A stretch of DNA of 10,899 nucleotides from Marine Group I thaumarchaeote (lineage in GTDB: Archaea; Thermoproteota; Nitrososphaeria; Nitrososphaerales; Nitrosopumilaceae): the NCBI GenBank assembly GCA_044358425.1, contig CP054849.1:609663-620561 (forward strand). The letters run 5' to 3'. The notes under the pieces were generated by a model that worked only from the letters and a program-made list of their open reading frames with translations, was not told the DNA's origin and searched no databases. This document shows, piece by piece, positions 263-1,988 of this stretch (position 1 is its first letter; the number at the start of each line of letters is the position of its first letter). Both the position numbers and the translations under genes were made by a program.

Positions 263-1231
263 ATGTCTGATTTTTCACGACCGATTATTGGTATCAGTAA
301 ATGCTTGGAATTTGATATGTGCAGATATGATGGAAGTAGAATTAATAATAATTTTGTCAGAAATATGAAAAAGTATGTAGATTTTGTAGATATTTGCCCT
401 GAAGTTGGAATTGGGCTGGGAACTCCTAGAAAACCAATTAGATTAGTCAAAATTGATGGAAAAAAAAATCTCTATCAGCCTTCTAGTGACAGAAATTTAA
501 CAGATGAAATGCATAATTTTACTAAAAAGTTTGTAGCTTCAACTGAAGTTCTTGATGGTTTTATCTTCAAACGTGATTCTCCAACTTGTGGAATAACTGA
601 TGTTAGATTATATCATAAATTAGGTACAGATTCTGGTTATCAAAAAACTTCTGGAATGTTTTCTGAAGGAGTATCTGCAGAATTTCCAAATATGGTAAAG
701 GAGGATGAAAAAAGATTATCTAATATTTCAATCCGAGAGCATTTTCTCACTAGGATTTTTGTTTTGGCAAATTTAAGAGAATCCTTAAAACAACAATCTA
801 TGGAAAAATTATTTGAATTTTATTCAAAAAATATGCTGCTATTTTTATGTCATGATGAAAAATTAACAGCTGAACTTGGACTGCTTTTTAGAATTCAAGA
901 TGATTTTGCAATTATTTCAAAGAAATTTCAAAAAATTGCATATGATGCATTGTCCTCCCCTGTAAAAAAAGCCCCCATGATTAACACATTTGAGTATATG
1001 TATAATTTTGTAAAATTAAAATTATCTGAATCTGAACAATCTTATTATCAATCATTAATTGATAAGTTTGAAAATGATTTAATTTCACAATCAGAAATAT
1101 CGACACTGCTCTATTCTTGGGCTTTAAGATATGATGTGAAAATTATTTTGGAACAATCTCTATTTGATCCTTTTCCAAAAAACTTATTGTTAGATCTAGT
1201 TGAATCAAAAAAAGAATATTCTGTTTTGTAA
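263..1231 (+). CDS. DUF523 (TudS-type thio-nucleobase desulfidase, Fe-S) + DUF1722 fusion, YbgA/RudS-like
   Basis: N-terminal motifs GISKCL..CRYDG, CPEVGIGLGTPR and SPTCG are characteristic of DUF523. EDEKRL..REHFLTRIF and C-terminal Q.LFDPFP match the DUF1722-fused form. Confidence 0.88.
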   Translation: MSDFSRPIIGISKCLEFDMCRYDGSRINNNFVRNMKKYVDFVDICPEVGIGLGTPRKPIRLVKIDGKKNLYQPSSDRNLTDEMHNFTKKFVASTEVLDGFIFKRDSPTCGITDVRLYHKLGTDSGYQKTSGMFSEGVSAEFPNMVKEDEKRLSNISIREHFLTRIFVLANLRESLKQQSMEKLFEFYSKNMLLFLCHDEKLTAELGLLFRIQDDFAIISKKFQKIAYDALSSPVKKAPMINTFEYMYNFVKLKLSESEQSYYQSLIDKFENDLISQSEISTLLYSWALRYDVKIILEQSLFDPFPKNLLLDLVESKKEYSVL

Positions 1232-1269: not shown

Positions 1270-1332
1270 AAAGTTGTAATTATTTTATTTTGATCTGTAA
1301 TTATTTCATCATGATCTGTAAAAATTACATAA
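1270..1332. promoter_or_regulatory. Three 21-bp-period imperfect repeats, each with a TGTAA-N3-TT(A/T)(C/T)A box; putative operator array
   Basis: TGTAAttaTTTTA 1275-1287, TGTAAttaTTTCA 1296-1308, TGTAAaaaTTACA 1317-1329. TGATCTGTAA is exactly repeated at 1291-1300 and 1312-1321. Confidence 0.55.
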
Positions 1333-1367
1333 AAAAAATTATACTTAATTATGATAACTTCCTAGGT

Positions 1368-1457
1368 ATGGTATTAGGAGTAAGTCCACCTTAACCCCCT
1401 GAGTGCAACGCTCAAAAGGAAACCAAACGGGATTTTGCCCTGGGCTTATTCATCTTT
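1368..1457 (+). ncRNA. Candidate structured small RNA of unknown family
   Basis: Local GC enrichment. 11-bp closing helix 1378-1388/1441-1451, inner hairpin 1400-1405/1409-1414. Three G-U pairs work only on the + strand. TATA-like 1339-1350 upstream and a T-run just downstream. Confidence 0.55.
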
Positions 1458-1508
1458 TAATTATTTTTCAATGCAAAGCATTAATTTGTGATATTTTTGA
1501 TCAAAGTT

Positions 1509-1988
1509 ATGTCATTTGAAATTGATTGGCATGATAATTTTTATGGAATATCCTGGGCTTATGAAAAAGATAGACTTGTAGTCTCTACTGTTTTTGAAGA
1601 TAAAAAAGAAGCAACAACTATTGCACAAGAAATAGAAGAATGGAGTGACAAGTTTACTCGATTAACAATTATTGAAAAAGATAATGGTGAATTTTCTATT
1701 TGTTGTTACGAAGATCCTCAAATCTCTAAAAGCTCTAAACATATTGGTCTATTTAGAACTGGAATGATACAAAGTGGGGGTTATGAGCAAGCAAAACCTA
1801 TGATTGAGGAAAAACCTCCTTTATTGCAAATTGCATATGCTTCTGATGTTAGAGATATGACTACTTATGAACAAATATCGCGACTTGTTCCAATGAGAAA
1901 ATGTAGAATTATTTCTGAAAAGGATTTGAAAAAACAAGAATATTATTTTGAAAGAACTGCCCATAACAAAAAAAATAATGAAATCTAA
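1509..1988 (+). CDS. Hypothetical protein (~159 aa); ATG at 1509 preferred over GTG at 1488
   Basis: Long ORF with globular composition. AT-rich TATA-like ATTAATTT at ~1480 suits a start at 1509. No motif recognised. Confidence 0.75.
   Translation: MSFEIDWHDNFYGISWAYEKDRLVVSTVFEDKKEATTIAQEIEEWSDKFTRLTIIEKDNGEFSICCYEDPQISKSSKHIGLFRTGMIQSGGYEQAKPMIEEKPPLLQIAYASDVRDMTTYEQISRLVPMRKCRIISEKDLKKQEYYFERTAHNKKNNEI

Follow-up and report, generated by a model that had tools for sequence, protein, structure and literature searches.

In bacteria, Qrr1-5, PrrF1/2 and LhrC1-5 are reportedly families of sibling, i.e. multi-copy, stand-alone sRNA genes, and the C-rich motifs of some bacterial sibling sRNAs pair with mRNAs. 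In arrangements of the oxyS/oxyR type, an sRNA gene stands divergent from a regulator or operon. The archaeal H/ACA guide sRNAs, also products of stand-alone genes, are single irregular hairpins of ~70–80 nt whose lower stem is long and whose internal loop is large, and the Y RNAs are closed-end RNP RNAs, their two ends held together by a terminal helix. Covarying helices around invariant junction or bulge nucleotides characterize riboswitch aptamers and small ribozymes, and many self-cleaving ribozymes associate with repeats or mobile genes. Here, we describe an archaeal locus that invites comparison with each of these systems.

The locus lies in the genome of a Marine Group I thaumarchaeote (GenBank assembly GCA_044358425.1, contig CP054849.1, positions 609,663 to 620,561), and the window, by which we mean the whole stretch of DNA that was analyzed, is 10,899 nt long. 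Its features are collected in Table 1. The reading that we favor, and consider probable by a modest measure, is that of a free-standing gene for an ~80-nt ncRNA of a new family that acts in trans and whose invariant loops most likely bind a conserved partner. Like the bacterial sibling sRNAs, the copies of this family look like self-contained promoter-RNA-terminator units with a near-invariant core; their promoter regions are highly similar, which suggests one regulator, and their number varies among related genomes. Unlike the bacterial sibling sRNAs, the archaeal family has a TATA-type promoter and an oligo-T terminator as predicted signals, its ends are locked in a 13-bp helix, and it keeps three invariant internal segments where the bacterial RNAs keep one seed.

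Table 1. Features of the RNA locus and its borders, in window coordinates
Feature	Position	Strand	Remarks
DUF523/DUF1722 gene	263–1231		Upstream border of the RNA-bearing spacer
Three tandem repeats of ~21 bp	1275–1329	.	Each opens with TGTAA (1275, 1296, 1317)
Putative promoter	1331–1357	+	A-run 1331–1338; TATA-like box CTTAATTA 1344–1351; TGATAA 1352–1357
ncRNA gene	1375–1458 (approximate)	+	GC island; covariance-model family; promoter-like and T-run signals
P1, 5' strand	1376–1388 (core 1378–1388)	+	Two more pairs in most other copies
Internal loop 1, 5' side	1389–1393	+	Invariant CC, then three variable bases
Proposed P2, 5' strand (ACCCC)	1394–1398	+	Pairs with GGGAU 1429–1433
P3, apical hairpin (GAGUG-CAA-CGCUC)	1401–1413	+	Length and loop variable across the family
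Purine-rich strand (AAAGGAAAY, four variable bases, C)	1414–1428	+	Internal loop 2, large 3' side
GGGAU (P2, 3' strand), then U-rich strand	1429–1440	+	Last two to three bases variable (CCC here)
P1, 3' strand	1441–1453	+	Covariation with 1376–1388
Predicted oligo-T terminator	1455–1468	+	TTTT 1455–1458; TTTTT 1464–1468
159-aa gene (the 1509 gene), without known family	1509–1988		Downstream border of the spacer

A reading of the window made from its sequence alone, hereafter the sequence-only reading, had noticed a GC-enriched island in this AT-rich spacer, and the numbers bear it out: GC content is 0.48–0.50 in 60-nt windows spanning 1360–1439 against 0.13–0.22 in the flanking spacer, in a genome of 26.6% GC. 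Could the island encode a small protein? No ORF of at least 50 aa was found over 1232–1487 on either strand, and the aligned copies of the RNA share no conserved start codon and frame. Hairpin P3 differs in length among copies by 1, 2 and 8 nt; indels of these sizes inside the RNA exclude a conserved reading frame, and the unit is non-coding. Is the single sequence unusually stable as a fold? The + strand reaches −23.9 kcal/mol, for a z of −1.17; of 200 shuffles, 30 folded just as well. In other words, the lone + strand fold is at chance level, and the evidence for an RNA is comparative.

The comparisons start from the genus. Of 60 relatives searched with BLAST, 10 have clear homologues (E ≤ 1e-12), and one of the 10 has four. 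A first covariance model, made from nine orthologues, has 76 matches in 40 of the 151 genomes of the genus (22 of the 98 high-quality ones), leaving 111 from which the RNA is missing; four genomes hold 12, 7, 7 and 4 copies, and the window's own genome holds one. A second model, made from 48 copies and run on an even sample of the order, matched only the window's genome and one other of the same genus; under Infernal's strict filters, 146 genomes spread over 63 other genera had no match. Species-representative genomes were scanned with a pattern, which picked out 81 stretches; 68 genome-contig loci and three viral-contig matches were passed to the model, and 49 of the 68 match it fully or as copies cut at a contig end. 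Thaumarchaeal labels are attached to 48 of these 49 (Nitrosopumilus, Nitrosopumilaceae, marine group I, Nitrosomarinus, one Nitrosarchaeum, Nitrososphaerota and 'archaeon'). The other one sits in a contig binned as Phycisphaerae. Beyond the 49, a single partial 22-bit match in a bacterial bin looks like chance, and the 18 other bacterial-labeled loci failed the model. One matching record, L102, is labeled as an isolate. In a metagenome pattern scan, whose pattern left both P2 strands unspecified, at least 120 stretches were found; among the matches listed, 55 of 75 loci match the model, and these comprise at least 49 distinct sequences, at least 39 of them new. The family total exceeds 100 distinct members. 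Judged from these searches, it is a previously undescribed RNA family restricted to Nitrosopumilus-type ammonia-oxidizing archaea. Full-text literature searches found no paper on a regulatory RNA of marine ammonia-oxidizing archaea and none on an RNA like this one in Nitrosopumilus; passages of PMC5069720 concern other RNAs. As a side observation, one genome carries in two places (L082 and L083) an identical RNA with identical flanks over at least ~220 nt of printed sequence (the span compared comprising 70 nt upstream, the RNA and ~58 nt downstream), a sign of either a recent segmental duplication or a repeat in the assembly.

What fold do these copies share? Pairs were counted in 68 distinct copies, in alignments that were fitted to the model's structure and so lean towards it. 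Across the 22 proposed pairs, 89.8% of cells are standard pairs, and 10 of the 22 change on both sides; the covariation score was reached by none of 500 column shuffles, it collapsed when partners were slid by 1–3 columns (pairing then drops to 27–54%), and a 47-copy set gave the same picture. The covariation signal resides in P1, where 9 of 13 pairs change on both sides. For example, pair 7-101 is GC in 46 copies and AU in 22, with none unpaired; pair 9-99 is AU 38, CG 18, GU 8 and UG 4; and pair 10-97 is CG 28, AU 14, UA 13 and UG 5. Variants seen by eye agree with P1 as well (GCCUG/UAGGC in L051, GG/CC in L080). The 11-bp closing helix that the sequence-only reading had drawn at 1378–1388/1441–1451 is present in the sequence and covaries strongly across the collected homologues. 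That reading had also held that the wobble pairs favor the + strand: the cells of P1 and P3 hold 225 G-U against 50 A-C, an excess from which it follows that the selected molecule is the + strand, and the minus strand folds worse than its own shuffles (z +0.90).

Inside P1, conservation rather than covariation prevails, with about 31 of the 51 positions between the P1 strands at least 95% conserved. The two invariant C's of internal loop 1 belong to an invariant CACC (1387–1390) that is kept in the 68 distinct copies and in at least 49 distinct metagenome copies. P2 would consist of an A-U pair, a C.A mismatch and three C-G pairs, with the variable base after ACCCC left unpaired. Its strands are invariant in the 68 distinct copies and in at least 49 metagenome copies, which provides no covariation for or against the helix; in the sole variant, AUCCC of L064, a U-A pair replaces the C.A mismatch. 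Although unspecified in the metagenome pattern, these strands are invariant in all 55 covering matches among the matches listed, one end-cut match being without the P2 5' strand, and we regard P2 as a plausible helix. In P3, three pairs (GAG/CUC) are invariant and the fourth is UA 34, UG 22, CG 6 and AU 1; the hairpin measures 13 to about 21 nt, and its loops are unrelated among copies. On the 3' side, AAAGGAAA within the purine-rich strand is at least 95% conserved in the 68 distinct copies; the metagenome pattern fixed this strand, and the metagenome set is therefore non-independent there. The U positions of the U-rich strand tolerate C or A in some copies. Its AUUUUG (1432–1437) resembles an Sm/Lsm site, a likeness that concerns a short motif with U positions that are not strictly conserved.

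This picture retains the outline of the sequence-only reading and changes its interior. The apical hairpin, which it had placed at 1400–1414, keeps its helix. The pairing of CCUU (1389–1392) with AAGG (1416–1419) does not survive the comparison, as CCAU, CCAC or CCUC faces the invariant AAGG in other copies, and the pairing of GGG (1429–1431) with CCC (1438–1440) fails in the same manner, the latter segment being GCUC, GCUU, GCUA, GC-A or GU-A elsewhere. An alternative pairing of the C-run with that GGG, which it had also mentioned, fits the family better, in the form of P2. Thus, in place of the multi-stem junction proposed before, the alignments favor a single irregular hairpin. An RNAalifold alternative, AGUCC/GGGAU, was set aside: it competes with the top of P1, which the variants in L051 and L080 fit.

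Does an irregular hairpin of this kind belong to a known class? Rfam 15 gave no match at gathering score in the window; at E ≤ 10 over 1232–1510 there were six weak matches, none of them on the + strand at 1366–1456, and 12 other family members gave one weak match at E ≤ 1, outside the RNA. ARAGORN found no tRNA or tmRNA gene in the window. The sequence-only reading had likewise been unable to match the RNA to tRNA, SRP, RNase P or a familiar riboswitch. Archaeal H/ACA guide sRNAs share with it the single irregular hairpin of ~70–80 nt, the long lower stem, the large internal loop and the stand-alone gene; unlike them, it has no ACA/ANA box after P1, the bases there being AUC, ACC or ACU in group-1 copies and U-runs in group-2 copies, with CAU, CAC or U-runs as the flank, and it has no apical K-turn or K-loop, with no tandem G.A/A.G flanking a 3-nt bulge in alignments inspected by eye and with a variable apical loop. 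Moreover, guide pockets vary from one guide to the next, while this RNA keeps its loop strands invariant in more than 100 copies. Of the two boxes of C/D sRNAs, C (RUGAUGA) near the 5' end and D (CUGA) near the 3' end, a CUGA occurs within CCCCCUGAG, yet the RNA has no C box. On the minus strand, a C/D-box-like sRNA candidate at 1259–1316 (AUGAUGA, CUGA) scores 17 bits against a cut-off of 44 and loses its C box in orthologues, and is probably a chance match. The Y RNAs are similar in their terminal helix and conserved internal loops, and in being small, dispensable and patchily distributed; unlike those similarities of form, there is no sequence or Rfam similarity to them.

The boundaries of the gene are predicted from signals that recur around the fold. 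In 55 of the 68 distinct copies, a YTTAWBY motif begins 28–32 nt upstream of the base at which P1 starts to pair; in most of the other 13, a variant such as TTTAAAT takes its position. The spacing from TATA box to start point is usual enough in archaea to place the latter, and the position of the TATA-like box therefore predicts a start at ~1375 ± 2, at the foot of P1. Initiation at ATG 1368, as proposed from the single sequence, fits less well; this ATG lies ~7 nt upstream of the start that the conserved box would give. At the other end, 60 of the 68 distinct copies have a run of at least four T's no more than 15 nt past P1, and oligo-T is a sequence at which archaeal RNA polymerase terminates. 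With a start at the foot of P1 and a T-run after it, the predicted transcript is little more than the fold. Transcription would run from the RNA's own TATA-type promoter, downstream of repeated palindromic sites, and would stop at the T-run directly after the closing helix, making the primary transcript nearly the folded RNA itself. From these signals we infer a discrete transcript of ~80 nt. Four sequencing runs gave only Logan contigs of depth about 5; in two RNA libraries, these cover the RNA plus its promoter and may represent DNA or read-through; low-depth contigs in one of these libraries also cover the upstream gene. Contig ends at this depth of about 5 fall once at 1452 and twice at 1436. 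The earlier proposal of a novel archaeal sRNA with its own promoter fares well here, given the absence of an Rfam or tRNA match, a family of more than 100 members, a covarying P1, a promoter-like box and a T-run.

Upstream of this promoter stand the three tandem repeats, the third of which is a perfect palindrome, TGTAAAAATTACA, at 1317–1329. The repeats are kept in most of the 18 group-1 loci aligned, and group-2 copies are conserved over ~140 nt upstream, a stretch that holds a related palindrome, CTGTAAGAAATACAG. Their look of an operator array makes the repeats candidate binding sites for a transcription factor. A regulon was sought from the palindrome; its 13 exact sites in the genome are mostly inside ORFs, so that none is definable, and the control for these sites was a mononucleotide shuffle, a poor one.

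Is the RNA instead a part of the gene that follows it? The sequence-only reading had offered, besides an sRNA, a translation-coupled cis-acting element for the 1509 gene, and had drawn a leaderless ORF of eight codons; a leader or attenuator would be of the same kind. The arrangement is indeed recurrent: apart from the window, 12 loci have a 1509 homologue on the RNA's strand and downstream of the RNA, and in 10 of these the homologue starts 42–65 nt past the RNA. The RNA is single-copy in the window's group. Against this reading stands the distribution, as the gene has a homologue in 137 of the 151 genomes of the genus (97 of the 98 high-quality ones) and the RNA occurs in 40 of the 151. The gene also has a promoter-like motif of its own, GCATTAATTTG, ~25 nt before its ATG, in all six RNA-less loci examined and in the window (1480–1495), from which its mRNA appears to be leaderless. 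A gene that is core to the genus and keeps its own promoter in genomes without the RNA does not have the RNA as its leader. Additionally, T-runs stand between the RNA and the gene, and paralogous copies of the RNA have unrelated or convergent neighbors; across the family, no constant and coherent set of downstream genes was found of the sort that riboswitches and cis-leaders have, the neighbors being different and sometimes convergent. As for the mini-ORF, the window does contain its ATG at 1368 and its eight-codon frame, but most aligned orthologues (e.g. L002 and L003) lack the ATG. We consider the cis-acting reading very improbable and already largely refuted. Overall, the earlier observation is largely right; its inner pairings need revision, and the mini-ORF and the cis idea are to be dropped.

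Some further observations were made around the 1509 gene. Its promoter-like motif resembles the RNA's own TATA-like box. Its protein has no Pfam family, and the ESM Atlas gives clusters of hypothetical proteins only. An 11-nt string, CCTGGGCTTAT, is present both in the RNA (1439–1449) and in the gene (1549–1559); as a link between the two it was rejected, since W-A-Y codons explain it and since variants of P1 are not followed by the gene in orthologues. In the RNA-less loci L168–L171 and L173, a gene for a 77–82-aa protein lies upstream of the 159-aa gene in place of the DUF523/DUF1722 gene; this different neighbor argues for a local rearrangement in the RNA-bearing clade.

The multi-copy genomes bear on another alternative, namely that the unit is mobile or works as DNA, for instance as a MITE-like repeat, as an attachment site or as an inverted repeat bound by protein, and is no RNA at all. 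Its patchy distribution and its up to 12 copies per genome could be so explained, and where a genome has many copies, ~140 nt of upstream sequence and, often, a small gene have been duplicated along with the RNA. In four complete genomes of this kind, however, the 19 RNA copies sit among ordinary housekeeping genes, and a domain search of 76 flanking ORFs (of 98 called, at 15 of the 19 loci) turned up no integrase, transposase or phage domain. None of the three viral-contig pattern matches passes the covariance model, and conservation stops at the T-run in the flank alignment of the 19 copies. The excess of G-U over A-C, furthermore, speaks for selection on the RNA of one strand. We find this alternative scarcely credible. 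By sequence comparison, the unit has been shown to be a conserved, strand-specific, non-coding and structured one, with fixed promoter-like and terminator-like signals and independent of its neighbors.

What, then, travels with the RNA in these genomes? In 12 of the 19 copies, a small Cys-rich ORF lies divergent from the RNA, within about 150–260 nt, and these ORFs form three families, of 52 aa, 72 aa (zinc-ribbon-like) and 71–75 aa. The 52-aa family occurs in 7 of the 151 genomes of the genus; six of the seven carry the RNA, including the four copy-richest, in which 11, 8, 4 and 3 matches of the gene accompany 12, 7, 7 and 4 copies of the RNA. About 12 of the 29 matches of the family adjoin an RNA copy, mostly ~250 nt away, and the gene is divergent, ~153 nt off, from many copies of the RNA (L066:2690-2845 on the minus strand, L065, L069, L073, L076, L080). 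Its residues C8, C11, H15, H17 and C42 are invariant; the protein has no Pfam or NCBIfam match and only two database relatives, and a weak fold model (pLDDT 68) found no structural match (best E 1.4). The family is absent from the window's genome and therefore is not required for the function of the RNA there, and no protein gene was found that co-occurs with all copies of the RNA.

Similar in kind are observations on the wider neighborhoods. In L066:362-2845 and L081:3247-6042, the 52-aa gene heads a same-strand cluster with genes for DM13 and ArsR-type HTH proteins, joined in L066 by a Spondin_N protein; the DM13/ArsR-type HTH clusters could be a hint that the shared regulatory region is controlled by metals or redox state. 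Members of the 72-aa zinc-ribbon-like family (CxxxC...CxxC...CPCC) are divergent from the RNA in L074:3253-3468, L075:3355-3573 and L082:3254-3469; they have a weak zf-IS66 match below the cut-off, and the window's genome holds two paralogues (~1208037-1208213 and ~566887-567057), neither of which adjoins the RNA. The comparison to make is with oxyS/oxyR: as there, many copies in the multi-copy genomes are divergent, at ~153 nt, from a gene, here the 52-aa Cys/His gene, which in L066 and L081 heads the DM13 and ArsR-type HTH cluster; unlike there, the window's copy has no 52-aa partner, the family being absent from its genome.

For the function of the RNA, the central observation is that covarying helices and paired ends enclose loops that are almost invariant in more than 100 copies, from which we infer the loops to be the working surface and the RNA to act in trans. 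In our preferred reading of a free-standing, trans-acting RNA, P1 would join the 5' and 3' ends of the irregular hairpin. Above it would lie an internal loop with the invariant CACC on one side and the U-rich UUUG on the other, followed by the short probable helix P2 (ACCCC/GGGAU), the large invariant purine-rich bulge AAAGGAAAY and the variable apical P3. The loops would be bound by a conserved cellular partner, for which a protein (in a small RNP, or a regulator that the RNA titrates) seems likelier than an mRNA; our ranking of partners would thus put protein first, base pairing to mRNA second, and ligand binding or catalysis third. The window's genome has three LSM-domain (Lsm/SmAP) genes. 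With AUUUUG, a motif like that of Sm/Lsm sites, and the U tail, these make Lsm/SmAP one candidate partner; such Lsm/Hfq-type features (the AUUUUG, the 3' T-run and the three LSM genes) come without target complementarity in the searches made. As the RNA is absent from 111 of the 151 genomes, a partner that is a core protein would have to work without the RNA in those.

Might the loops instead pair with mRNAs? As a base-pairing riboregulator, the RNA would use its CACC/ACCCC or its purine-rich bulge on mRNAs, e.g. on purine-rich ribosome-binding sites, and its own promoter and terminator, its multiple copies like those of sibling sRNAs, and the LSM proteins as possible chaperone are all consistent with that. 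The group-2 loop CACCUC even shares 6 nt with the 3' end of 16S rRNA (GAUCACCUCCU in the window's genome); the window's group, however, keeps only CACC, reading CACCUU, CACCAU or CACCAC, and SD-like motifs occur in few genes, GGAG at −16..−5 being found 53 times before 908 ORFs. No complement of 13–15 nt to any of the three conserved stretches was found in the genome with up to two mismatches, the matches besides the locus itself being AT-rich and chance-like, and three invariant segments with paired ends are, from established knowledge, unusual for a seed-type sRNA. We regard a riboregulator as possible but rather unlikely.

A ligand sensor or catalyst, transcribed on its own as an orphan fold of the aptamer-like or self-cleaving sort, would likewise be expected to have covarying helices around invariant junction or bulge nucleotides, and the RNA has these, down to the high conservation of its inner positions. 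No Rfam riboswitch or ribozyme match appeared, though, even at E ≤ 10; the downstream gene is inconsistent among copies, and there is no association with repeats or mobile genes. This we consider an outside chance.

More speculatively, and with only tentative credence on our part, the RNA may be the heart of a novel type of archaeal regulatory module: a closed-end RNA under the control of a transcription factor, its invariant loops capturing a specific protein or small ligand, that in some Nitrosopumilus lineages has been multiplied together with small Cys/His proteins of metal-binding appearance as a two-gene cassette. If true, this would be the first sibling-sRNA system of the ammonia-oxidizing archaea, possibly one of metal or redox homeostasis.

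Marine ammonia-oxidizing archaea are among the most abundant microbes of the ocean, and the RNA family described here represents a well-defined candidate in them. It comes in more than 100 natural variants, its fold and the boundaries of its gene are clear, and its regulatory region is conserved. GC-rich islands in very AT-rich genomes of these archaea, such as the one that marks this gene, can also be used for finding unannotated RNA genes. With the fold, the boundaries and the regulatory region this clear, the expression of the RNA, its partners and its regulon should be directly testable in carrier strains and in metatranscriptomes.
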